The translations under genes and the position numbers were made by a program. 64,000 nucleotides of DNA, from positions 3,149-67,148 of the forward strand of contig DFKW01000006.1 of NCBI GenBank assembly GCA_002373935.1, in the 5' to 3' direction. The stretch's first letter is position 1; every line of letters begins with the position of its first letter. The DNA comes from Alphaproteobacteria bacterium UBA3635. Its GTDB lineage: Bacteria > Pseudomonadota > Alphaproteobacteria > Rs-D84. Below are positions 1 to 51,918 of this stretch, in pieces. A model generated the notes under the pieces. That model saw nothing but the letters and a program-made list of their open reading frames with translations. It did not search any database and was not told the origin of the DNA.

Positions 1-2633
1 AGGCAATTGAAAATACCGAAATAATTGCATCGCGTTGTGGATTTTTAGTTAATGTGCACGAAAAACCGTTGCTGCCAAAATTCGGTGACGATTTTGAAAC
101 CGAGTGCCAAATGTTGCGCGACAATACTATGCAGGGGCTGGCGGCGCGGATTGCCGAACACAATATCACCGACACCCAACCATATTATGACCAGGCGGAA
201 TTTGAATTAAATGTTATTATTGGCATGGGATTTCCGGGATATTTTTTAATCGTTGCCGATTATATTCAATGGTGTCGCAACAACGATATTTTAACCGGAC
301 CGGGGCGTGGTTCGGGTGCGGGTTCTATTGTGGCGTGGTGTTTGGGTATTACCCATGTTGATCCGTTGAAATATGGTTTGCTGTTTGAAAGATTTTTGAA
401 TCCTGACCGTATTTCTATGCCGGATTTCGATGTCGATTTTGAACCGACGGGTATTGAACGCGTGTTGGCATATATTTGCGACAAATATGGGCATGATTCT
501 GTATGTCGTATTATCACATTTGGCAGTTTACAGGCCCGTGGTGCAATTCGCGATATTGGACGTGTGTATGGAATACCCTATTCTAAATCCGACAGATTAT
601 CAAAACTGATTCCGGCGGACGCAAAAAAATTAAAAGATGCGGTTGATTCTTCACCCGAAATGCAGGCGGTATTGGCGGCGGATGCCGATATGGACAAGGT
701 TGTGCGTGTTGCCGAAGAATTAGAGGGTTCTATACGAAACCTGGGGCAACATGCATGTGGCGTTGTTATTGGCGACCGTCCAACAACGCAAATCGCACCG
801 GTGTATCGCGACCCATCAAACCCGTTACCATCCAGTCAATATGATGGACATTATCTAGAGGCAACGGGCCTGATTAAATTTGACTTTTTGGGGTTGGAAA
901 CATTGGTTGTGTTAAAGCATGCGGTTAAATTGATTCAACAAACGCGTGGTATTAATGTTGATTTAGACAAAATCCCAACCGATGATGATGTCACAATGAA
1001 GTTGTGGCAACGGGGCCTGACCGAGGGGATATTCCAATTCGATGCTCCGTTCGTTAAACAAACACTGCGAAAAATGCAACCGACCAGTTTTTTGGAAATA
1101 TCTGCATTGAACGCATTAAATCGACCGGGACCAATCGCGTTTATTCCGCAATTTATCGCCCGTATGCATGGCGAAGAAAAAATTGAATATGTTCATCCCA
1201 AGGCCGAACCAATATTAAAAGAATCGTATGGCATTATCGTGTATCAAGAACAGGTTATGTTATTGACACGGGCTCTCGCGAACTTTACCCGCGGTGAATC
1301 AGATACCGTGCGCAAGGCCATGGGTAAAAAGAAATTGGATTTATTGGCCAAATTAGAGGTCAAGTTCCTGAAGGGATGTGAAGAGCAAGGAACATTGGAC
1401 AATGCAACCGCCAAAGATTTGTGGGAAAAATTCAAAGAATTTGCAAAGTATGCGTTTAATAAATCGCACGCGATTGCGTATTCTATTGTTGCAAATCAAT
1501 GTGCGTATTTGAAAGCTCACTATACCCCGGAATTTATTGCCGCGGCAATGTCCAGTAATTTGAACGATACAGACCAATTGGCGTTGTTTGTTGACGATGC
1601 AAAATCTAATTTCGGTATTCAAATTGTTGCACCCGATATAAACGAAAGTGAATCTTTGTTCACGGTTAAAGGTGGCAAAATTATTTATGCGTTGGCGGCA
1701 ATCAAGGGTGTTGGAACGGCGGCAACGGACGCAATTATTGCCGAACGTAATGCAAATGGTAAATTCAAAAATTTAACAGATTTTGCCAAACGGTGTGCGC
1801 CAATTATAAATAAAAGAATCCTAGAGGCGTTTGCCCGCGTTGGCGTTTTGGATTCATTAGAGAAAAATCGTGCGGCGATATTTATGAACGCAGATATGAT
1901 TTTGTCTTATGCGTCAAAAAGTAAAGATAATGGCAATTTGTTGTCTTTGTTTGCAAACACAACCCAGGATGATGTTGTCGAAGACAGATTGCACAGCAAT
2001 TTGCCTAAAACAGAACCGTGGACATTTGCGCAACGACTGGATAATGAATTGTCTGCATTGGGTTTTTATATTTCGGCACATCCGTTGGATCAATATAAAA
2101 ATTTAATTGCACGTGAAAAATTAGTCACCAGCAGTTCGCTGGAAACCATCGGCGACAGAAAACCGGTGCGTATTGCCGCAAATGTTGGGTCTTTTTCACG
2201 GCGACGGACCAAAACCGGCAAAGAAATGATTACTATCGCGGCATCGGACAGTTTCGGCAATATTGATGCGGTGGCGTTTGGTGATGCGTCACTACAATTT
2301 GCAAATATTTTATCCAAAGAATCTTTGGTTTTAATTTCGGGTAAATCGTCAAATCGTGATGACCGAGTGTCGGTGTTTGTTGATTCAATAACCCCATTAT
2401 CACAATGGGTGGCGCAAATCGCAAAGAAAATCACATTGGATGTATGGAACGGCGATGTGTTGCCGGATTTAAAGAAAACTTTATCCGCCCTGGGCGGGGG
2501 TTCTACGCGGGTGGTATTAAACTTGCATGGGGCGGACAAAATTGCAACAATGGCATTGCCAGGCGGCGTCAATTTGGGCGAACATACGGCGTCTGATTTG
2601 GCGGCATTAGGGGTCAAGGTCCAGATAGAATAA
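1..2633 (+). CDS. dnaE: DNA polymerase III alpha subunit, C-terminal ~875 aa (5' end lies outside the window)
   Basis: The frame is open from base 3 and continuous with ORF 54..2633. Sequence is Pol III alpha-like (GRGSGAGS, IVYQEQVM, FNKSHAIAYS) with a C-terminal OB-fold-like region. Confidence 0.95.
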   Translation, partial: AIENTEIIASRCGFLVNVHEKPLLPKFGDDFETECQMLRDNTMQGLAARIAEHNITDTQPYYDQAEFELNVIIGMGFPGYFLIVADYIQWCRNNDILTGPGRGSGAGSIVAWCLGITHVDPLKYGLLFERFLNPDRISMPDFDVDFEPTGIERVLAYICDKYGHDSVCRIITFGSLQARGAIRDIGRVYGIPYSKSDRLSKLIPADAKKLKDAVDSSPEMQAVLAADADMDKVVRVAEELEGSIRNLGQHACGVVIGDRPTTQIAPVYRDPSNPLPSSQYDGHYLEATGLIKFDFLGLETLVVLKHAVKLIQQTRGINVDLDKIPTDDDVTMKLWQRGLTEGIFQFDAPFVKQTLRKMQPTSFLEISALNALNRPGPIAFIPQFIARMHGEEKIEYVHPKAEPILKESYGIIVYQEQVMLLTRALANFTRGESDTVRKAMGKKKLDLLAKLEVKFLKGCEEQGTLDNATAKDLWEKFKEFAKYAFNKSHAIAYSIVANQCAYLKAHYTPEFIAAAMSSNLNDTDQLALFVDDAKSNFGIQIVAPDINESESLFTVKGGKIIYALAAIKGVGTAATDAIIAERNANGKFKNLTDFAKRCAPIINKRILEAFARVGVLDSLEKNRAAIFMNADMILSYASKSKDNGNLLSLFANTTQDDVVEDRLHSNLPKTEPWTFAQRLDNELSALGFYISAHPLDQYKNLIAREKLVTSSSLETIGDRKPVRIAANVGSFSRRRTKTGKEMITIAASDSFGNIDAVAFGDASLQFANILSKESLVLISGKSSNRDDRVSVFVDSITPLSQWVAQIAKKITLDVWNGDVLPDLKKTLSALGGGSTRVVLNLHGADKIATMALPGGVNLGEHTASDLAALGVKVQIE

Positions 2634-11826: not shown

Positions 11827-12312
11827 ATGAATCAACTTGTTATATCTGGAACAAACTATAGTATGCTACTTGACGTGAACTGGACGCGTGGCGATAATTT
11901 ATATCAGGTGGACTTTATATATCTGGATCCTTTTTGTAAACCAAGGGGGTTTGATAGTCAAATCTGTAATATACACGGCAATGATATACGAAATATTCAT
12001 ATAGGTGATATTGGTGAATATTTGACAGCACCACAATACAAAAAACCGACATGGAAACAAATTTTTCCCTATTGCGAACACAATATAGAATTAGCAACAC
12101 TGCTTGGCATAGGAAAACCAAATAAAGCAAGGGTTTTTGGTAATAAAATCGGTGAACAAACTATATCATTACGCGATACAGATATTGGATTTCAACGTGG
12201 TGATGATTTATTGATACAGATAGACAACGGTTATCAATACAAGCTTGTTCGCAATATAAATCAAGAATTGTTAAAGTATAAATTGCAACAACAAATGGCA
12301 AAAAGGTTATAA
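11827..12312 (+). CDS. Hypothetical protein (AT-rich gene)
   Basis: ORF 11794..12312 trimmed to MNQLVISG. No family recognised. Visibly more AT-rich than its neighbours. Confidence 0.5.
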   Translation: MNQLVISGTNYSMLLDVNWTRGDNLYQVDFIYLDPFCKPRGFDSQICNIHGNDIRNIHIGDIGEYLTAPQYKKPTWKQIFPYCEHNIELATLLGIGKPNKARVFGNKIGEQTISLRDTDIGFQRGDDLLIQIDNGYQYKLVRNINQELLKYKLQQQMAKRL

Positions 12313-12318
12313 AAATCC

Positions 12319-12347
12319 TTGCTTTTTCGTTAAATTTAGTTCATAAT
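12319..12347 (+). promoter_or_regulatory. Sigma-70-type promoter of rplY
   Basis: TTGCTT, 17-nt spacer, CATAAT, followed by an ~85-nt leader. Confidence 0.5.
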
Positions 12348-12435
12348 ACGCCCTGCACGACACCCTTGGAGGTTGTGCAAAGGTTAACAACCCCACTTCG
12401 CCGAGGCTATGTGGGGCAAGAAAAAGGACAAAAAA

Positions 12436-13053
12436 ATGGCAATTGAATTAAATGCAGAATTTCGTGAAGTTGCTGGCAAGGGGGCCGCACGTGCAATTCG
12501 TAAAAATCAAAATATCCCTGCAGTAATCTATGGTGAAAAAAAGGAACCAACCGCAATCGTGTTGAATATGCGCGATTTTGAAATGTTGTTGAAACAACCG
12601 TCTTTGCGGACAAAATTGTTCCAAATCAAAACACCAAAGGGAACAGAGGACGCTATGTTGATGGATATTCAATATCATCCGGTGTCTGATCGTGTTATTC
12701 ACGTTGATTTCAAACGCATCGATGTTAAATCGCCGGTCGCGGTCAGTGTGCCGTTGGAATTGGCAAATATGGAAACATCACGCGGTTTGAAAATGGGTGG
12801 CGTGTTGAACTTTGCGGTGCGTAAGGTTGCATTGCGTGGTTTGGTTCACGACATGCCGGAAAAAGTCGTTATTGATTTGACAGACCTGAATATCGGTGAT
12901 GTGGTTCACGGAACTGATTTGGTTTTGCCAAAAGGTATTGAATTGGGTCTGCACCAGGCAGAATTGGCGTTCGTCACAATCGGCGGTAAAATGCCAGATG
13001 AAACTGATAATAAACCTGCGGCAGCCGCAGCGGCAGCACCTGCGAAAAAATAA
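12436..13053 (+). CDS. rplY: Ribosomal protein L25 (Ctc form)
   Basis: Start at MAIELNAEFREVAGKGAARAIR. Ala-rich C-terminal tail. Confidence 0.9.
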   Translation: MAIELNAEFREVAGKGAARAIRKNQNIPAVIYGEKKEPTAIVLNMRDFEMLLKQPSLRTKLFQIKTPKGTEDAMLMDIQYHPVSDRVIHVDFKRIDVKSPVAVSVPLELANMETSRGLKMGGVLNFAVRKVALRGLVHDMPEKVVIDLTDLNIGDVVHGTDLVLPKGIELGLHQAELAFVTIGGKMPDETDNKPAAAAAAAPAKK

Positions 13054-27760: not shown

Positions 27761-28149
27761 TTTACACTGGATATTGGGCAAAAATAAAAGAATACGAACA
27801 ACAAAATTTGACCCCAGTTGGTATTTCCGGATGGTCGCCGGATGGGTATGCTGGCAAAACATACAAAAAACTGGCACCGAAATACGCGTGGTGGAAAGAG
27901 TGGCACGATAACAATTTATCTGAACAGTGGTATATAAACAAATATTTTGAAACCGTATTAAATAAACTGAATCCTCGCACGGTTGCGCAAGATCTGCAAC
28001 AAATGGGACAAAATGTTGTTTTATTGTGCTTTGAAACGCCCGATAAATTTTGCCACAGACATTTGGTTGCAACGTGGTTAAACGCATCCAAATTTGCAGA
28101 TGTTCGTGAATATATTTTAAAATCAAATCAAATGCAAATGAATCTGTAA
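27757..28149 (+). CDS. DUF488-like protein
   Basis: 130 aa with VVLLCFE..DKFCHRHLVATWL motif. ATGA overlap with the xseA stop. Confidence 0.6.
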   Translation: MIYTGYWAKIKEYEQQNLTPVGISGWSPDGYAGKTYKKLAPKYAWWKEWHDNNLSEQWYINKYFETVLNKLNPRTVAQDLQQMGQNVVLLCFETPDKFCHRHLVATWLNASKFADVREYILKSNQMQMNL

Positions 28150-28150
28150 A

Positions 28151-28174
28151 AAAACGCCCAATTGGGCGTTTTTT
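28151..28174. terminator. Intrinsic terminator (CGCCCAATTGGGCG type)
   Basis: AAAAA-CGCCC AATT GGGCG-TTTTTT. Confidence 0.85.
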
Positions 28175-28175
28175 A

Positions 28176-28210
28176 CAGTTTTCAGAGTACAGAGTGCAGA
28201 GTTCAATTAT
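28176..28210 (+). repeat. Tandem heptamer array (CAGAGTN x5)
   Basis: CAGTTTT CAGAGTA CAGAGTG CAGAGTT CAATTAT. Confidence 0.85.
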
Positions 28211-28238
28211 TGTGTCGGTCGTGGACCGACAACGTTAT

Positions 28239-28325
28239 TTATGTGTTTTGACGGCGGTCAATGCCAACCCACGGTGCAGCAATGCACACAGCAAATCCGG
28301 CGGAATTGATTAAAACAATAGACAT
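28239..28325 (-). pseudogene. Internally deleted, frameshifted remnant of the 72-aa XRE gene
   Basis: Aligns to both ends of 38794..39012 but lacks ~130 bp internally. A 28-codon stub remains behind an intact AGGAGG RBS. Confidence 0.8.
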
Positions 28326-28373
28326 CATCGAACCTCCTGTTTTTATTTATCACCGCCAGGATGGCGGATTCAC

Positions 28374-28445
28374 AACTGCCCCGTCACCCTGACGGGTGCC
28401 ACCCCTTCTTTTTGTGCTGGCGCACAGAAAAGACGGGGAATGTCC
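28374..28445. repeat. 72-nt two-hairpin module (copy 1 of 4)
   Basis: aactgcccc - variable hairpin - cacccc - invariant imperfect hairpin CCCCTTCTTTTTGTGC tggc GCACAGAAAAGACGGGG - aatgtcc. Confidence 0.85.
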
Positions 28446-28537
28446 AGAGATAAAAATCATAGTGCAACAACTGCACTCTGCCTGCGCCCCATAGCCCAAC
28501 GGGCGCCGGGGTGAACTTTGCACTCTGAACTTTGAAT

Positions 28538-28690
28538 AAAAAATACCGCGGAAAAAGCGCGGTTGGAGGCCAGAAAACTACTACAGAGTGTAGTGCCGCT
28601 TATTCAATATATTCGCGACCCTCCAACCAACTGGGTGGAGTTTTCTCTGTACAAGGTTTTTCTGGACCCACATTGGCAACACACCAATGC
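28538..28690 (-). ncRNA. Candidate structured RNA of ~150 nt (copy 1), unknown class
   Basis: Promoter TTGCAA-17-TAAAAT (28725-28697) and terminator ACCGCG/CGCGGT plus U-run (28563-28538). Helices covary with copy 2. Confidence 0.6.
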
Positions 28691-28726
28691 AGATATATTT
28701 TAACCGACAAAGTATAAATTTGCAAA

Positions 28727-30379
28727 TTATTTTATCAATGTTTTTGCGGTGGCGATGGATTCAGGTGTTATGTCGGCGCCACTGATTATGCGGGCGATTT
28801 CGTTCACACGTTCGTCACCCGTGATTTCCACAACAGATGTCGTTGTTTTGTCGCCGTCTGTTGATTTTGATATTTTATAATGACGGTCGGCAAAGCCCGC
28901 AACCTGGGCCGAGTGGGTTATAACAATTGATTGTGCATTTTGCGACAATTTATTCAAACGTGCACCAACCGCGGATGCGGTTGCGCCACTGATACCCGTA
29001 TCAATTTCATCAAACACAAATGTGTGTGCGTCCGCCCCGCCCGCCAAAACCACGCGCAGCGCCAACATAAAACGCGCCAATTCACCACCAGATGCCGATT
29101 TGTTCAATGGTGCAAATGGCATGCCGGGATTTGTTTTAATCATAAATACAACATCGTCCACACCGTTGGCGGTTGGGTTTGCGTTTGTAATTTCAACCAT
29201 AAAATCCGCAGACCCCAATTTCAAATCCGGCAATTCTGACAAAATACGTGTTCTGATTGCCGCAGATGCATCCGCCCGCATTTTGGATAATTTGTGTGCG
29301 GCATCATTGAATTGTTTTTTTGCGCCCGTCAATTCGTGTTGTAATTTTTGCAATTCGGCATCGGAATTATCGATTGCATTTAATGCCATTTCCATATCGC
29401 GTAATTTATTCGGTAATTCGTCCGGCAAAACACGATGTTTGCGTGCCAAACTGCGAATTGCAAACAGACGTTCCTCGACATCATCAATTGTGCCAATGTC
29501 CGGTGCGTCCGGTTTAATAGATTCCGCCACATCTGCAATATTTTGTGCAACATTATACAATGTATCGATTTGTTCCGCATACGGGTTTTCGCCATCGCCG
29601 TGCAACCGTTCCAAAATATGCGCAACATCGCAAACAAGTGAATCCAACGAATTCCCGTTCGGATTCAACGCATTTTGTGCATCGTTCAAAATTGCGGTAT
29701 TTTTTTCCGCGTTCATCATATTTGCACGAATTGTCGCCAATTCGGCTTCTTCGCCGGGTTTGACATTTAACGCACGCAATTCGGCAACATTGTGTTCCAA
29801 AAATTCGTGTTCAGATGCCGCGCGACTAACCAATTCTTGCAATTCAGATAACCGGGTTTCGATTGTGTGCATTGTGTTGTATGATTCACGGACAGATTTT
29901 TGCACATCTGTGAACCCTGCAATATTTAATGCGGCAAATGCGTCCAATGTTGGACGATGTGTTGCCGGGTTTAACAATGTATGATTTGCAAACTGACCAT
30001 GGATTTCAACCAATGCATCGCCAACCATTTTCAACACACGCACCGACACGGGTGTATCGTTTATCCATGCGCGACTTTTCCCGTCCGACGACAAAGTGCG
30101 ACGCAACACAACGGTATCATCCACATCCAGTCCATTTTCCATCAATATATTTTTAACATTATCAGACACAGATGTAAATTCCGCCGTGGACGCGCCCACA
30201 TCGCACCCGGCACGCACCAGGCCGGCATCACTGCGCGCACCCAATGCCAAAGACAATGCATCCATTAAAATACTTTTGCCCGCACCCGTTTCACCGGTTA
30301 AAACATTTAATCCACCACCGAATTCCAAATTCAGTTTTTCAATTAAAACTATATTAGAAATATTTAATGATGTCAGCAT
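28727..30379 (-). CDS. recN: DNA repair protein RecN
   Basis: 550 aa with N-terminal LTGETGAGKSILMDAL and an SMC-like coiled coil. Confidence 0.95.
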   Translation of the reverse strand: MLTSLNISNIVLIEKLNLEFGGGLNVLTGETGAGKSILMDALSLALGARSDAGLVRAGCDVGASTAEFTSVSDNVKNILMENGLDVDDTVVLRRTLSSDGKSRAWINDTPVSVRVLKMVGDALVEIHGQFANHTLLNPATHRPTLDAFAALNIAGFTDVQKSVRESYNTMHTIETRLSELQELVSRAASEHEFLEHNVAELRALNVKPGEEAELATIRANMMNAEKNTAILNDAQNALNPNGNSLDSLVCDVAHILERLHGDGENPYAEQIDTLYNVAQNIADVAESIKPDAPDIGTIDDVEERLFAIRSLARKHRVLPDELPNKLRDMEMALNAIDNSDAELQKLQHELTGAKKQFNDAAHKLSKMRADASAAIRTRILSELPDLKLGSADFMVEITNANPTANGVDDVVFMIKTNPGMPFAPLNKSASGGELARFMLALRVVLAGGADAHTFVFDEIDTGISGATASAVGARLNKLSQNAQSIVITHSAQVAGFADRHYKISKSTDGDKTTTSVVEITGDERVNEIARIISGADITPESIATAKTLIK

Positions 30380-33567: not shown

Positions 33568-35481
33568 ATGCCAGCCACGCAAATTTTATTGATTGTTTTG
33601 GGTTTTGTATCAACATTATTATTGATTGCATTGATTGTGTCTTTTTCAATTTCACGCAAATCTCAACACGTTATGGAATCTTTGTTAACCATTTTAACAC
33701 ATCCGGAACGCGTTCAAATTCGCGACGCGGCGCGCGTGTTAAACACCGTTTTGGCCGACGAAATTGCAAAAATTCACGCGGGTTTTCAAACACTGCAAGA
33801 AACATTACAAACCCAAATTGCCACCGCCGAAGATTTGCAACAACGACTGAGCAGTCAAAACGACGCATTGGTGAATACCGCGGATGACGCAACGAAAAAG
33901 GTTGCCAATATGTCGCAACGATTGGAAAATACTGTCGATGGATTGCAAAACATTGTTGATTCCGAAAATTGGAATTCGGTTGCGGTGTCTGCGGATAATT
34001 TTTCGACAAATATCGGTGAAATGTTGGCAAAAATCGACACAACAACATCTGATGTGAATACCCGGATTGATAATATACAAAATCAAATTACAAACTGGAT
34101 TGATGCGGGCGAAAAATTAAACGGTGAATTAAACACAAATTTCGAAAACAACACCAATCAAATGAAATCTTTGACCGATAACACAAATACTATGCGTGAT
34201 ACATTGGCCGATTTGAATAAATCTGTGGCGGACGGGTTCGACAATATAAAAACATCTGCCGCCGGATACGAGGATGTGTTGCGCACAAACGACAAATTCA
34301 TGAACGACCATTTGGTTAAATTAGACGCATACAGCAAAAATGCAAAAAAACAACTGGTGGCACAGGCAAACACATTGACCAATACCGCCAATGTCGTCGC
34401 CAGCCAGGTGCAATTGGCGGAATCATCAATCGACAAACAAACGCGCAAATTGACCGATGCGGTTGATGCATTGATGACATCTGCAACAACGACCGAGGCA
34501 TCTGTGCGCGGTGTATCAAATGAACTGTCGGGACTGACCAATCATTTCAATGGCGAAATCAAAGATTTTGCAACATCTGTGGTGTCCGAGATAAAAACCG
34601 TATCGGGCGTTGCAAATGTCACATTGGAAAACACAAAAACCGCCGCAAATGCGTTTTCGGAATCGGTCAAAACAATGGCGACGGGCGTGCGCGAAACACT
34701 GATTGAGATGAACACGGCACACACCCAACTGTCGGGTCAATCGCAAAATTTAATTAAATTGTCGGCGGACACAACCGCACAATTGCAACCGCTGTCTGAA
34801 TTGATTGAAAAGTATTATGCCGCCCTGCCCGATTTGTCACAATTATCAATTCAAACGAACGATAACCTGAACAAAATTGTGGCAAATATGGAAAAGAACA
34901 TTGCGCTGATAAAACAGGCGGTCGCAGATTCAACAACATCTGTTTCCGAATCCACAACAAAACTGGAAGATTTGGCCGGCGGGGCGCGTCAACAAATGAT
35001 TGATTTGATGTCTGATTATGCGCGCGCCGTGAACACATTGCAAACATTAAACAAACAAATGATGGTCGCACGCGCATCGGCACCAATGGATGCAATTAAA
35101 TCGGCCCCGATTGCCGCCGCCGCGGCCAGTGGTTCGGATTTTTTGGCAAATGTGGACTTCGGTAAACTGTATGAATTATCAATGGATTTAACCCAGGCAA
35201 TCGGTGCAGACATCCCCGATGTCGTGTGGAAAAAATATCATGCGGGCGATAAAACAATATTTTCAAAATGGCTGTCAAAAATGATGAGTGCGGCTGAAAA
35301 AAAGCAGATTCGTGATTTGTTAAAGAACGATACTATTTTCCGGTCCCAGGCATCACAGTTCGTGCGCGGTTTTGATAAAATTTTGGACGGCGCGGCGCAA
35401 ACCGATACACCGGATGCGGTAAAGTCAAAATTGTTAAAAACAGATTTGGGAAATATTTACACCCACCTGAAAGGAAAATAA
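33568..35481 (+). CDS. Membrane-anchored long coiled-coil protein, unknown family
   Basis: Start trimmed to MPATQILLIVLGFV (TM), RBS GGGGAG. About 600 aa rich in Asn/Thr/Gln/Leu with heptad character. Confidence 0.65.
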   Translation: MPATQILLIVLGFVSTLLLIALIVSFSISRKSQHVMESLLTILTHPERVQIRDAARVLNTVLADEIAKIHAGFQTLQETLQTQIATAEDLQQRLSSQNDALVNTADDATKKVANMSQRLENTVDGLQNIVDSENWNSVAVSADNFSTNIGEMLAKIDTTTSDVNTRIDNIQNQITNWIDAGEKLNGELNTNFENNTNQMKSLTDNTNTMRDTLADLNKSVADGFDNIKTSAAGYEDVLRTNDKFMNDHLVKLDAYSKNAKKQLVAQANTLTNTANVVASQVQLAESSIDKQTRKLTDAVDALMTSATTTEASVRGVSNELSGLTNHFNGEIKDFATSVVSEIKTVSGVANVTLENTKTAANAFSESVKTMATGVRETLIEMNTAHTQLSGQSQNLIKLSADTTAQLQPLSELIEKYYAALPDLSQLSIQTNDNLNKIVANMEKNIALIKQAVADSTTSVSESTTKLEDLAGGARQQMIDLMSDYARAVNTLQTLNKQMMVARASAPMDAIKSAPIAAAAASGSDFLANVDFGKLYELSMDLTQAIGADIPDVVWKKYHAGDKTIFSKWLSKMMSAAEKKQIRDLLKNDTIFRSQASQFVRGFDKILDGAAQTDTPDAVKSKLLKTDLGNIYTHLKGK

Positions 35482-35508
35482 AAAAACCGCCCAATCGGGC
35501 GTTTTTTT

Positions 35509-38751: not shown

Positions 38752-38793
38752 AGAGCAATCGAAATCAAAAAAAACGCCCAATCGGGCGTTTTT

Positions 38794-39012
38794 TTATTTA
38801 TGTGTTTTGACGGCGGTCAATGCCAATCCACGATGCAGCAACGCGCAGAGCAAATCCGGCGGAATTGGTAATCGCCCAATTTCATACAGGTACAAATCGT
38901 GCGACGATATTTTCAAAATTTCCGCCACGGTGGCTTTATTCATATGCAATGATTTACGCGCCCGGCGCAGTTGTTGTCCATAGGCACGCGCATCAATTAA
39001 AACAATAGACAT
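38794..39012 (-). CDS. Small XRE-family HTH protein (72 aa)
   Basis: LRRARKSLHMNKATVAEILKISSHDLYLYEIGR HTH. RBS GGAGGAG. Terminator at 38775-38788. Confidence 0.75.
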   Translation of the reverse strand: MSIVLIDARAYGQQLRRARKSLHMNKATVAEILKISSHDLYLYEIGRLPIPPDLLCALLHRGLALTAVKTHK

Positions 39013-39222
39013 TTCTCTCCTCCATTTTTATTTATCACCGCCAGGATGGCGGATTCACAACTGCCCCGTCACCCTGACGGGTGCCACCCCTTCTTTTTGT
39101 GCTGGCGCACAGAAAAGACGGGGAATGTCCAGAGATAAAAATCATAGTGCAACAACTGCACTCTGCCTGCGCCCCATAGCCCAACGGGCGACGGGGTGAA
39201 CTTTGCACTCTGAACTTTGAAT
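39013..39222 (-). promoter_or_regulatory. Multi-hairpin 5' leader of the XRE gene, containing heptamer blocks and the 72-nt module (39059-39130)
   Basis: Successive hairpins: CCCC..GCCC gtt GGGC..GGGG, AGTGCA/TGCACT, the module hairpins, and CCGCCA/TGGCGG. About 165 nt is identical to 28341-28505. Confidence 0.6.
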
Positions 39223-39375
39223 AAAAAATACCGCGGGAAAAGCGCGGTTGGAGGCAAGAAAAACTACCATAGAGTGTAGCGTCGCTTATTCGAATATTCA
39301 CGACCCTCCAACCAACTGGGTGGAGTTTTCTCTATGCAAGGGTTTTCTTGTCCCACATTGGCAACACACCAATGC
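39223..39375 (-). ncRNA. Candidate structured RNA of ~150 nt (copy 2), unknown class; possibly a cis-acting attenuator
   Basis: Lies between promoter 39410-39382 and terminator 39248-39223. Three helices are supported by compensatory or wobble changes against copy 1. Confidence 0.6.
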
Positions 39376-39381
39376 AGACAT

Positions 39382-39410
39382 ATTTTAACCGATAAAATAT
39401 GATTTTGCAA
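39382..39410 (-). promoter_or_regulatory. Sigma-70-type promoter of the candidate RNA
   Basis: TTGCAA (39410-39405), 17-nt spacer, TAAAAT (39387-39382). Confidence 0.65.
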
Positions 39411-39464
39411 ATTATTATTAATAATTCATTATATGAAAAAAACCGCCCGATTGGGCGGTTTTGG

Positions 39465-49478: not shown

Positions 49479-49525
49479 TATAATTGTTTCTTCTAAAAAA
49501 ATCCGCCCGTTTGGGCGGTTTTTTT

Positions 49526-49560
49526 CAGTGTTCAAAGTGCAGAGTTCAGAGTGCAGTTGA
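49526..49560 (+). repeat. Tandem heptamer array (x5)
   Basis: CAGTGTT CAAAGTG CAGAGTT CAGAGTG CAGTTGA, immediately after the rlpA terminator (49503-49525). Confidence 0.85.
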
Positions 49561-49580
49561 TGAATAATTATTATTTCGGA

Positions 49581-49686
49581 CATTTCCCGTCGCCAATTTT
49601 TACCGAAGCAACGCGAGGATTAAAAATTGAGCATCGCGCCGAATTCCGCCACATAAAAAACACCACGATTTCTCGTGGTGTTTTTT
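49581..49686 (+). ncRNA. Candidate short RNA (~105 nt) ending at a bidirectional terminator
   Basis: Possible promoter TTCAGA-18-TATTAT (49545-49574), internal hairpin CGCGA/TCGCG, and terminator CACCACGA/TCGTGGTG plus T-run (49661-49686). Confidence 0.3.
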
Positions 49687-49786
49687 GATTTTATCTGGCA
49701 AGGCCTTTTTCTGATTGGGAGTTGGTTTCGGGGCCACCAAATAAAATCAAAACTCTAAGTTCCTTTTCCCCAGTGGAGAGGAACTT

Positions 49787-51247
49787 TTACTCCACCACCG
49801 GACCGGCGGTAAAAGTCCCGGTGCCTGCATTGGTATAAAATCTATCGTTGACCAAATCATACATTCCCAACACACCGTCGCTGTTGCGTTTTACAGGAAT
49901 CATATTGCGAACCAAAATGTCATTTTCGTAAATGCTAAATTCGTATACTTGCACTTTATTATTGGTGCTCTCTATCGACGGTCGCCATCTCTGAAAGATA
50001 TAAAAAGGTCGATTATCTGTATCTGGAATCGTTGCATTATTAGTCAATTTCACATCACCGTTCACAGAAAATTCTGTTGCAGATAACGATAATTTGTTTT
50101 TTTCTAGCATATTAACATTCTCTGCATGAAGCCACGTTCCAGCTGGGTCGAATTTGATTTCGGCAGTACTATCGTCCAAAGAATTTATAACAAGTAAAGC
50201 ATCACTAGAAACGCCTGTTGTTCCACGTCCTGAACCAACAATATTTACATTACCCGCACCAGAGTCAACTTTCGCGACAATTTCTATACGTGTTTTTGAT
50301 GTTGGAGAATAATTCGTGTTTATGTAAGCGTTCCCATCAGAACGCAAATATTCCAACTCTGTATAACCCTCGGGCAGGCAATGCGCACTGCTGCAAATCT
50401 CGTACCAATGCGGAACGCCACTCGCATCTTCGACCAACAGGCATTTCTTGCCGGCGGGGCATTTTTCATTGTCGTCAGCAATGTCGTTTGGGCGGGTTTG
50501 TTTGCCCGATTGCAAAGTCGCGATACTCGCCGCCTGAGATATCGTGTTTGACACGACCGTATTCACCGTCGCAACCGCCGCCGCCAACCGTGAGTTCAAA
50601 TCACTAAACTGTGTTTCCACATATTTTGTCGTGGCAATTTTGATTTCTGCAATCGGTCCGGCAATAAACGAACCCGAACCGGCATTGGTATAGAACTGCC
50701 CACCAACCGTATCATACATCCCAATCGCAGAATCACTGTTCCGTTTCGCAGGGATAAAGTTTCCGATTACGCGCCCAGCAGAATCTTTTGCAACAAAATT
50801 ATAAACCTTCTCTTTTGACGGATAGTTGCCACCAACAACCGCGAACAAACCAAAACCAGTATTATTGTGATAGCTGCCTAATGAGTGTTCGTTTTCCAAA
50901 TTTTCGTTAACATATAGCTTTGATTTGCTACCACTAATTACTAATTTTGCATTATAAATTGTGTTTAATGTTACAGTTGTTCTGCCACGGCTCATATTCC
51001 ACCAATATAAGTCACTATCTATACCCATTTGTGCATCAGAACCCCAACCATTCATTTGATACGCGCCAAATAAGCCTGAATACGATAAACGTATTTCAAA
51101 TGATGAGCCGTCTGTACCAAAAATCCCTGTATCAATATATTGGGTTCCTGTACTTTCGATGTATTCCAACTCCGTATACCCCGCCGGCAGCGCCCACGAT
51201 GGAATTGTGAATAATAACCCCAACATCGCACATAAAAGTTTTTTCAT
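49787..51247 (-). CDS. Secreted protein with two lectin/tail-fibre-like repeat domains
   Basis: Start trimmed to MKKLLCAMLGLLFTIPSWA (signal peptide). Internal duplication: LPAGYTELEYIESTGTQYIDTG...FYTNAGSGSFIAGP versus LPEGYTELEYLRSDGNAYINT...FYTNAGTGTFTAGP. Confidence 0.75.
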   Translation of the reverse strand: MKKLLCAMLGLLFTIPSWALPAGYTELEYIESTGTQYIDTGIFGTDGSSFEIRLSYSGLFGAYQMNGWGSDAQMGIDSDLYWWNMSRGRTTVTLNTIYNAKLVISGSKSKLYVNENLENEHSLGSYHNNTGFGLFAVVGGNYPSKEKVYNFVAKDSAGRVIGNFIPAKRNSDSAIGMYDTVGGQFYTNAGSGSFIAGPIAEIKIATTKYVETQFSDLNSRLAAAVATVNTVVSNTISQAASIATLQSGKQTRPNDIADDNEKCPAGKKCLLVEDASGVPHWYEICSSAHCLPEGYTELEYLRSDGNAYINTNYSPTSKTRIEIVAKVDSGAGNVNIVGSGRGTTGVSSDALLVINSLDDSTAEIKFDPAGTWLHAENVNMLEKNKLSLSATEFSVNGDVKLTNNATIPDTDNRPFYIFQRWRPSIESTNNKVQVYEFSIYENDILVRNMIPVKRNSDGVLGMYDLVNDRFYTNAGTGTFTAGPVVE

Positions 51248-51650
51248 TTCTTTCTCCCCGTTCTTTTGGTTCTGCGTTTTTTTGTGAAAAATTTTCACAA
51301 AAAAAGCGCCATCAACAGGAAGATGCGCGGCAGGGGTGTTAGAAAAATCAGTACAACAATGACCCCATATGCATTACTGCATACGGCACCCACGCCAAAC
51401 CGTAAACGGGTCGATAGCGGGTTTTTTATACAGGGGTAAAATTCACATTTCTATATGGTGAAAAAAATTTTTCCTAAAAATTCCAACACCGAAATAAAAA
51501 TGTCGGTGCAAAATATGACGGCAACAAACACAGCCCCGCCGAATCGAATCGGGCGAGCATGGGAGAGTTACGATGCAAATCTTGCACCGGTTGTACTGGA
51601 CTTTTCTAAGGTCCTTGTCCGAAATCAACTCCCTGGTGATTTCTGATGTC

Positions 51651-51680
51651 ATTATAGAAAATGGAATTTATTTATTGCAA
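51651..51680 (-). promoter_or_regulatory. Near-consensus sigma-70 promoter reading toward the lectin-like gene
   Basis: TTGCAA (51680-51675), 18-nt spacer, TATAAT (51656-51651), about 400 nt upstream of the start codon. Confidence 0.6.
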
Positions 51681-51691
51681 GAATATTTTTG

Positions 51692-51862
51692 AACTGCCCC
51701 ACCGGCTACGCCGGTCCCCCCCCTTCTTTTTGTGCTGGCGCACAGAAAAGACGGGGAATATCCAGAGTCGGAGGTGCAATAAAATTTTTGAACTGCCCCG
51801 TCCCGCTTTCGCGGTCCACCCCTTCTTTTTGTGCTGGCGCACAGAAAAGACGGGGAATATCC
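51692..51862. repeat. Two tandem copies of the 72-nt two-hairpin module (51692-51763, 51791-51862; 99-nt period)
   Basis: Same consensus as 28374-28445 and 39059-39130. The first hairpin differs in each copy but stays paired. Confidence 0.9.
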
Positions 51863-51883
51863 GATAATAAATAATTATTTTCT

Positions 51884-51918
51884 ATAACTGAACTCTGCAC
51901 TCTGAAAACTGAAAACTA
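51884..51918 (-). repeat. Tandem heptamer array (x5)
   Basis: Read on the minus strand: TAGTTTT CAGTTTT CAGAGTG CAGAGTT CAGTTAT. It abuts the ligA terminator (51921-51935). Confidence 0.85.

Follow-up and report, generated by a model that had tools for sequence, protein, structure and literature searches.

REP (repetitive extragenic palindromic) sequences and bacterial interspersed mosaic elements (BIMEs) of Enterobacteria, and the REPINs of Pseudomonas with RAYT, a Y1 transposase, are GC-rich imperfect palindromes present in many extragenic copies. They occur singly or as tandem or inverted pairs, form mosaics with short motifs, lie in intergenic regions near terminators and are conserved beyond neutral expectation. 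The intergenic mosaic elements of Neisseria (NIMEs) consist of RS units bracketed by dRS3 repeats, are concentrated beside surface-protein genes and are thought to promote recombination. [quoted passage not shown] Invertons such as fimS and the Bacteroides capsule promoters are segments bounded by inverted repeats that are found in both orientations near surface-protein promoters. Here we describe a 72-nt two-hairpin module that shares many of these features and occurs four times in a 64,000-nucleotide stretch (the window) of contig DFKW01000006.1 (positions 3,149 to 67,148) from Alphaproteobacteria bacterium UBA3635 (assembly GCA_002373935.1), an uncultured organism known from metagenomes of the ruminant gut.

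We assign a probability of about 0.58 to the reading that the module belongs, as one unit, to a family of non-autonomous mosaic repeats at the DNA level, similar in kind to REP/BIME elements, NIMEs or MITEs. The family is best read as previously undescribed, from a clade of uncultured rumen and gut Alphaproteobacteria, and as an element of a familiar type rather than a new RNA gene; no specific description of an equivalent repeat was found in the literature. A preliminary description made from the window's sequence had suggested a REP/BIME-like or MITE-like element. This is borne out in kind, as the module is multi-copy, extragenic and mosaic, shows insertion and inversion polymorphism, has truncated and chimeric copies and matches no Rfam family. 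Strict membership of the REP/RAYT system or of a transposase-derived MITE family is not supported; no RAYT or transposase gene was found in the ∼64 kb of the window and ∼280 kb of related loci, and no target-site duplication was seen. The copies are multiple and modular, and the loci display gain or loss of sites, inversion, tandem duplication, truncation and recombination between loci.

The module differs from each of the known systems in several respects. Compared with the ∼20–40-nt palindrome of a REP or REPIN, its unit measures 55–115 nt and holds two hairpins with replaceable palindrome slots. It lacks a conserved 5' tetranucleotide of the GTAG type, its ends being AAYTRCCCC and AATRTCC or ACGGTGCRAGAAC, and the arrays of degenerate heptads that accompany it have no counterpart in REP or BIME sequences. 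No RAYT gene (PF01797) was present among the open reading frames (ORFs) scanned or in the gene tables of the related loci L007–L020. Extragenic copies in pairs and mosaics, as seen in BIMEs, are represented by a tandem at 51.7 kb, by head-to-head pairs and by the heptads and further units termed C, X and H. As in the NIMEs, short units are bracketed by a smaller repeat and lie beside surface-protein genes, but the bracket is a degenerate 7-nt array instead of the 20-bp dRS3; to our knowledge, the two families have no sequence similarity and the module family has no link to a filamentous prophage integrase. The presence/absence polymorphism typical of MITEs was observed at two loci, that of a 72-aa helix-turn-helix (HTH) gene and the L017/L020 locus, whereas the ends of the element are imperfect heptad arrays without a defined terminal inverted repeat, and no parent insertion sequence (IS) is known. 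The resemblance to invertons is that one orthologous locus (L003 versus L005) has a segment between inverted repeats in either orientation, near surface-protein gene promoters. This was seen once, between genomes rather than within one population; a consensus scan placed the promoter outside the module cluster, and no adjacent invertase was found.

Module copies and the anatomy of the element

The 33-nt core of hairpin 2, TTCTTTTTGTGCTGGCGCACAGAAAAGACGGGG, has four exact matches in the window, all on the plus strand (starting at 28406, 39091, 51724 and 51823), compared with none in 100 shuffled sequences and a chance expectation of zero. The corresponding four modules, whose positions and sequences agree with the preliminary description, are of the type we call L and lie on the plus strand. 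Two of them, at 28374–28445 (96.9 bits) and 39059–39130, are identical and carry the hairpin-1 stem CCCGTCA/TGACGGG. Module a, at 51692–51763, has the stem ACCGGC/GCCGGT at 51701–51715, followed by a C8 tract at 51716–51723, and module b, at 51791–51862, has the stem CCGC/GCGG at 51803–51814. Modules a and b form a tandem with a period of 99 nt from start to start. The 27-nt linker between them (51764–51790) reads CAAAAATTTTATTGCAC followed by CTCCGACTCT on the minus strand. On the same strand, the 3' end of module a, GGGGCAGTTCAAAAATATTC, directly adjoins the –35 hexamer of the promoter noted here earlier as strong, a sigma-70-type promoter (TTGCAA-18-TATAAT) at 51680–51651 with homologs in L017, L019 and L001. 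The linker contains the same leader and TTGCAC junction as the sequence after module a, without the –10 element.

A covariance model built from eight copies and run without filters on the window recovered the four modules at 90–97 bits and nothing more above noise, while a motif scan added one truncated relic, GGACATTTCCCGTC, at 49578. The 28.4- and 39.1-kb copies are part of a duplicated block of ∼0.5 kb (28340–28577 at 99% and 28609–28731 at 91% identity, with a further stretch, 28235–28308 versus 38794–38867, at 93%) and are therefore counted as one, which leaves three independent full copies and the relic. A single recent duplication does not account for the module: at least four other genomes, and another scaffold of this assembly, carry independent copies.

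Related loci were collected in several ways. An exact-pattern scan of one genome per species yielded four loci in two rumen metagenome-assembled genomes (MAGs), RUG13827 and RUG13375, and a metagenome scan yielded two additional ones. Exact-protein and homologue look-ups retrieved L008 and L018 from the window's own scaffold, L017 from a different scaffold of this assembly, the orthologous loci L011–L015, whose LigA is 85–92% identical to that of the window, and the paralog loci L016, L019 and L020. The family comprises at least 19 non-identical copies in at least five genomes, which fall into the subtypes L, S1 (ACAACTACCCC..CCACCCCTTCTTTCATAAAGAAGGGGAATGTCC), S2 (AATTACCCC..CCACCCCTTCTTT(GTGA/CATA/GGGA)AAGAAGGGGACGGTGCRAGAAC) and CTCC/GGAG, in the last of which the base of hairpin 2 has undergone a compensatory change.

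The module scaffold reads AAYTRCCCC ... CCACCCCTTCTTT ... AAGA(A/C)GGGG, followed by AATRTCC or ACGGTGCRAGAAC, and has two slots that arbitrary perfect palindromes can occupy, one being hairpin 1 and the other the top of hairpin 2. The hairpin-1 slot holds a stem in all 19 copies, with at least 11 unrelated stem sequences, and the 19 inserts contain 116 Watson-Crick pairs but only three G-U pairs. Pairing is thus maintained, as the earlier suggestion of a covarying hairpin 1 implied, yet most differences are wholesale swaps by unrelated perfect stems and not stepwise covariation; truly compensatory-looking changes were found twice (AACCGC/GCGGTT versus AACCAC/GTGGTT, and TTGCAAC/GTTGCAA versus TTGCGAC/GTCGCAA). 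Hairpin 2, in turn, is invariant in the window and in the loci retrieved by a pattern that requires it, whereas its top is replaced or missing in copies found otherwise. L copies found independently carry the tops TTGC-TAC-GCAA, ATCC-TGC-GGCTA and TCGC-TAA-CGCGA, and another form is a plain 9-bp hairpin, CCCCTTCTT/AAGAAGGGG. Hairpin 2 looks invariant because the window carries a single subfamily, and the contrast drawn between the two hairpins was overstated, both having a replaceable slot.

Identical inserts also occur in different scaffolds: ACCGGCTACGCCGGT is common to module a and to the L017 copy at 12227, whose hairpin-2 tops differ, and TTGCGACTTTGTCGCAA is shared by two copies of different type, S1 in RUG13827 and S2 in L017. 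This points to exchange of inserts between module copies. Several new stems match conserved sequence next to them in reverse complement, namely CCCGTCA/TGACGGG in the 28-kb module, CCACCC...GGGTGG in L005 and GGACATTCCCC...GGGGAATGTCC in L001, a pattern that would be expected of fold-back or template-switch synthesis at a quasi-palindrome. The composition of the hairpin-1 stems points to selection or mutation acting on DNA palindromes, not on structured RNA. Other copies are truncated (L003 1240–1305, ahead of rpmE, and the relic at 49578) or palindromised (L001 3026–3088), and L and S modules form head-to-head pairs in L001, L017 and L019.

A complete element consists, in order, of a GC-rich hairpin that is usually a terminator, a heptad array, an AT-rich leader, one or two modules, an inverted leader, an inverted array and a second hairpin. 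The heptad arrays are degenerate, with three to five units of CARAGTK, and were found 14 times in distinct sequence, a 15th regular-expression match in L008 being the window's own locus. Every array begins within ∼10 bases after a GC-rich hairpin, and most such hairpins are terminators with a T run. The array is followed by the conserved junction CA(G/A)TTG(T/A)(T/G)G(C/A)A, an AT-rich stretch of ∼15 nt and then GGAYATTCCCCGTC, the reverse complement of the module 3' end. In the complete elements of L001, L003, L005 and L019, a second leader and an inverted array lie beyond the other end of the module, and inverted arrays with AT-rich leaders bracket the element in L001, L002, L003, L005, L017 and L019. 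The arrays on the two sides are only ∼70% alike, and three of the five arrays in the window have no inverted partner nearby. A minimal element, L002 5492–5578, is reduced to an array, the palindrome GTGCAACTTTGTTGCAC and an inverted array. Further units that join the mosaic are the C unit with the consensus CTGCGCCCCATAGCCCAACGGGCG.CGGGGT, the X unit TCATCAACCACAGTCGCGGCT.TGCGACAGCAGAGACGG, the H hairpin beside the module head and TGTCATCCTGAGCGAAGTCGAAA repeats. The last of these and their inverse CGCTCAGGATGACA were also seen in intergenic mosaics at L002 2190–2260, L004 2920–2990, L006 255–300 and 520–545, and L017 12440–12660.

Gain, loss and inversion of sites

At the HTH locus, a mosaic of ∼190 nt (39030–39222, minus strand; also present at 28345–28537) consisting of heptads, C unit, palindrome, L module and H hairpin fills the gap between the terminator of a leader and the ribosome-binding site (RBS) of the HTH gene. 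Empty sites are found in L009, which is orthologous and adjacent to recN, and in L007, where the same leader and HTH cassette lies in another gene context; in both, the RBS follows the terminator by 15–30 nt. An 88-aa ORF that spans the mosaic had no matching protein in a homologue search and is spurious. Similarly, the locus L017 has intergenic regions of 1029 and 940 nt packed with repeats, compared with 205 and 102 nt in its ortholog L020.

A third case concerns a 2.4-kb segment between ligA and an rlpA-like gene in the window (49526–51911), which is bracketed by inverted heptad arrays and carries a gene for a 503-aa secreted protein, its promoter and leader, modules a and b and the truncated relic. 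This segment is absent in L011, L012, L013 and L015, where the convergent rlpA-like gene lies 64 nt after ligA. The inversion was found in the spacer between suhB and the PBP1A gene, which L003 and L005 have in common. In a BLAST comparison, the flanks align on the minus strand at 90.6–92% identity, whereas the central ∼150 nt with the module align on the plus strand at 97.5%, which represents a clean inversion whose breakpoints are the inner edges of the heptad arrays.

The distribution of the family is patchy. In L017, which shares its assembly with the window, the covariance model detected six copies within 22 kb, but it detected no copy in 63.7 kb of L011–L014, none at E ≤ 0.1 in L007 (20 kb) and none in L015 or L016. 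Most module loci adjoin paralogs of the 503-aa secreted-protein gene. The protein encoded in the window (49787–51247, minus strand) has no Pfam domain and 998 homologue matches at E ≤ 1e-20 in MAGs of gut and rumen Alphaproteobacteria; up to five paralogs were counted per contig, with mosaic identity such as 78% over 59% of the length or 76–84% over 17–18%.

Evidence for a mosaic repeat and for its rivals

Under the favoured reading of a DNA-level mosaic repeat, the element would colonise the gap between a terminator and the next promoter. A transposase or recombinase acting in trans, with the heptad arrays or the hairpins as its recognition sites, may spread and rearrange it; alternatively, short-homology and template-switch recombination at palindromes may drive both processes. 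Fold-back copying of sequence nearby could give rise to new hairpins. For the host, the consequences would be secondary, through altered spacing and sequence upstream of promoters and hairpins added to 5' untranslated regions (UTRs), and the element may supply recombination substrates around paralogous secreted-protein genes.

Several observations weigh against this reading. The arrays, being only ∼70% alike, are weak both as classical terminal inverted repeats and as RecA substrates, and the copy number, four in 64 kb, is modest. No mobilising gene was identified: a Pfam scan of the ORFs nearest the modules and of about a dozen further flanking ORFs revealed no transposase, RAYT or recombinase gene, and the Pfam tables of L007–L020 contained none except a resolvase and an integrase in the module-free L016. 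The earlier statement that no RAYT, transposase or toxin gene lies nearby agrees with the window ORFs scanned, which include no transposase, recombinase or toxin gene. Comparison of the filled 39-kb site with the empty sites of L009 and L007, the one such junction that was readable, revealed no target-site duplication, only A/T runs at the junctions. Furthermore, the module scaffold is 97.5% identical between genomes while the flanking coding DNA is 90–92% identical, and at about nine of ten fixed loci the strand reading from GGAYATT to CAGTT is co-directional with the downstream gene; this conservation and orientation could reflect a selected function rather than selfish spread. A purely selfish element is also at odds with the promoter link through GGGGCAGTTCAAWAAT.TT.TTGCAM, which occurs at three unrelated genes, a link that is not universal. 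No IS was seen in any related locus compared, no genome-wide search having been made. The two genes of L016 encode a Hin-like serine recombinase (312–959, minus strand; Resolvase and HTH_7 domains), which adjoins a 518-aa ORF, and a XerC/D-like integrase (12082–12993, minus strand), which adjoins the paralog P0127; this region of a related genome has no modules.

Of the alternatives, the one that fares best, unlikely as we consider it, is a recombination switch, in which the inverted heptad arrays would be sites of a site-specific recombinase and the bracketed segment, either the module cluster or a secreted-protein gene cassette, would be flipped or exchanged to give phase or antigenic variation of paralogous surface proteins. 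The clean inversion between the arrays of L003 and L005 is consistent with such a switch, as are the array-bracketed cassette at 49526–51911 that relatives lack, the position of most module loci beside paralogs of the mosaic 503-aa protein family and the minimal arrays-plus-palindrome element in L002. However, a single inversion was observed, and a consensus scan places the promoter outside the module cluster. Moreover, none of the module loci has a recombinase gene nearby, since the Hin-like resolvase of L016 is in a module-free region, and three of the window's five arrays lack an inverted partner close by.

A broader version of this idea, which we regard as improbable, is that the heptad arrays are the sites of a site-specific system that inverts, excises and exchanges the segments they bracket, among them entire secreted-protein gene cassettes like 49526–51911, with the modules as its accessory or enhancer sites and the two hypervariable palindrome slots as footprints that hairpin intermediates of the recombination left behind. 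Were it correct, the arrays would belong to a new machinery of phase or antigenic variation in host-associated Alphaproteobacteria.

A cis-acting RNA appears just as improbable. Here, the module would be transcribed from the minus strand of the window, in 5' UTRs or by read-through, and would stabilise mRNA or bind a protein, hairpin 1 requiring pairing only and hairpin 2 being recognised by its sequence. The 39-kb module must lie in the 5' UTR of the HTH gene unless the mosaic brings its own promoter, and the strong conservation of the scaffold, the maintained pairing of hairpin 1 and the usual orientation of the module along its genes are in line with a role in RNA. The 3' GGGG run could also pair in two alternative ways, as CCCCGTC/GACGGGG or in the base of hairpin 2. 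Both hairpins form on either strand, with whole-module z-scores of –3.0 to –4.5. Hairpin 2, initially described as ∼16 bp with one bulge and one mismatch, folds with 15 pairs, one T/C mismatch and one bulged A. One of its pairs is a G-U wobble on the plus strand and an A-C mismatch on the minus strand; the better RNA hairpin, on the plus strand, is antisense to all neighbouring genes. In addition, the module faces one way relative to the same promoter in the window and L017 and the other way in L019 and L001, the position of most copies is upstream of a promoter or downstream of a terminator, the stems are almost wholly Watson-Crick, and truncated and chimeric copies exist. A search of Rfam 15 covered the whole window at the gathering threshold and 28.1–28.8 kb, 51.25–51.96 kb and L019 at E ≤ 10; it returned only a tRNA-Gly at the gathering threshold and only noise over the module regions at E ≤ 10. 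The scarcity of wobble pairs, the two orientations at one promoter and the positions outside likely transcripts together make a DNA-level element likelier than a functional RNA, and the evidence likewise leans against the repeated RNA domain that the preliminary description had listed among its candidates.

More doubtful still is a promoter-architecture element, in which the scaffold would lie at a constant distance upstream of strong promoters and be bound by a protein, for example a nucleoid protein, a regulator or gyrase, much as BIMEs contain sites for IHF and gyrase. The motif GGGGCAGTTCAA(A/T)AAT.TT.TTGCA(A/C) does join the module end to the –35 hexamer at the 503-aa gene of the window, at P0123 in L017 and at rpmE in L003; it also forms the tandem linker, and the irregularities of hairpin 2 are conserved. 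In contrast, the 28- and 39-kb modules have no comparable promoter after them, and hairpin 2 has a replaceable top. In L019 and L001, a heptad array and a hairpin stand ahead of the same promoter, including its A-rich upstream part, and the module is inverted and farther off. The promoter can therefore not simply be assigned to the module, and the related idea that the element donates the –35 hexamer is weakened. Pattern scans of viral contigs gave no match for a viral origin, and inspection by eye spoke against a riboswitch or ribozyme, an integron attC site and a sigma-54 promoter (copies 10–12 kb apart, no GTTRRRY core and no TGGCAC-N5-TTGC).

If the reading as a mosaic repeat is right, the family adds one more lineage-specific example to the intergenic repeats of bacteria and would be useful for annotating MAGs of poorly known gut and rumen Alphaproteobacteria, as such repeats break assemblies, yield spurious ORFs and mimic structured RNAs. 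What would make it more than routine is the scaffold with two slots for arbitrary palindromes, a compact natural record of template-switch or hairpin-based mutation, as well as the brackets of degenerate heptad arrays next to terminators and the concentration around a large mosaic family of secreted proteins, with one documented inversion. The repeat family is thus a candidate driver of surface-protein variation.

Features around the window modules and conserved leaders

All genes neighbouring the window modules are on the minus strand. Along this strand, the 51.7-kb region begins with ligA, its terminator and, directly after it, the heptad array CAGTTTT CAGAGTG CAGAGTT (51911–51891), which forms the outer edge of the repeat cluster. 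The AT-rich leader CAGTTATAGAAAATAATTATTTATTATC (51890–51863), with homologous leaders in L001, L003, L005, L017 and L019, module b, the linker, module a, the promoter, a conserved leader of ∼175 nt and the gene for the 503-aa protein follow. At the other end of the 2.4-kb segment, the inverted partner array (49526–49553, plus strand) directly follows the terminator of the rlpA-like gene. It is continued at 49554–49591 (plus strand) by the leader CAGTTGATGAATAATTATTATTTC and the truncated relic, whose module is itself on the minus strand.

The 39-kb module lies between the leader terminator (∼39230–39248) and the RBS of the HTH gene (38794–39012), and the 28-kb module has the same arrangement ahead of a copy of this gene with a 126-nt internal deletion. 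The deleted copy (28235–28332, minus strand), of which a 29-aa ORF is left, is probably a pseudogene and lies between the inverted arrays at 28176–28203 and 28514–28534. The latter (CAAAGTT CAGAGTG CAAAGTT, minus strand) comes directly after the leader terminator and is duplicated at 39199–39219 (minus strand), while the former (plus strand) follows the terminator of a DUF488 gene. A C unit, CTGCGCCCCATAGCCCAACGGGCGCCGGGGT (28481–28513, plus strand; also at 39166–39198 and in L006 and L017), interrupts the heptad array. Between this unit and the module lies the palindrome AGTGCAACAACTGCACT (28461–28477), a motif that also forms the core of the minimal heptad-bounded element at L002 5527–5557. 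The H hairpin CCGCCAGGATGGCGG (28353–28367) stands beside the 5' end of the module, and analogous hairpins flank S-type modules in L002, L003 and L019.

Bidirectional terminators of near-identical sequence, AAAAAAACCGCCCAATCGGGCGTTTTTTT, occur at eight sites within 11642–49524 (for example 28141–28175, 35474–35508, 38761–38795 and 49490–49524), two of which precede heptad arrays. As this type is found at filled loci and unrelated terminators at the empty orthologs, the terminator may travel with the repeat.

Two conserved leaders were observed beside the modules, neither of which matches an Rfam family. The ∼175-nt leader lies directly downstream of the strong promoter in the window (51470–51645, minus strand), L017 (9192–9375), L019 (5404–5570) and L001 (2735–2915, minus strand), always ahead of a paralog of the 503-aa protein gene. 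All four retain an intact long-range helix, formed by CCGGTGCAA(A/G)A and TTTTGCACCG, which overlaps a downstream hairpin (CACCGA..TCGGTG); this suggests an attenuator or a riboswitch-like leader. The second leader, of ∼150 nt, precedes the HTH gene in the window (28545–28730 and 39230–39416, both minus strand), L009 (230–420) and L007 (9780–9975). This leader carries an intrinsic terminator as well as a promoter of its own (TTGCAA-17-TAAAAT), and the cassette of leader and gene is found in three gene contexts. Because the RBS lies within 15–30 nt of the terminator in the empty sites, expression of the HTH gene probably depends on regulated read-through. Finally, the GC skew of the window switches sign near 28–32 kb, from +0.16 to –0.07, tracking the prevailing gene orientation; this change may mark a replication terminus or be a mere effect of gene orientation.

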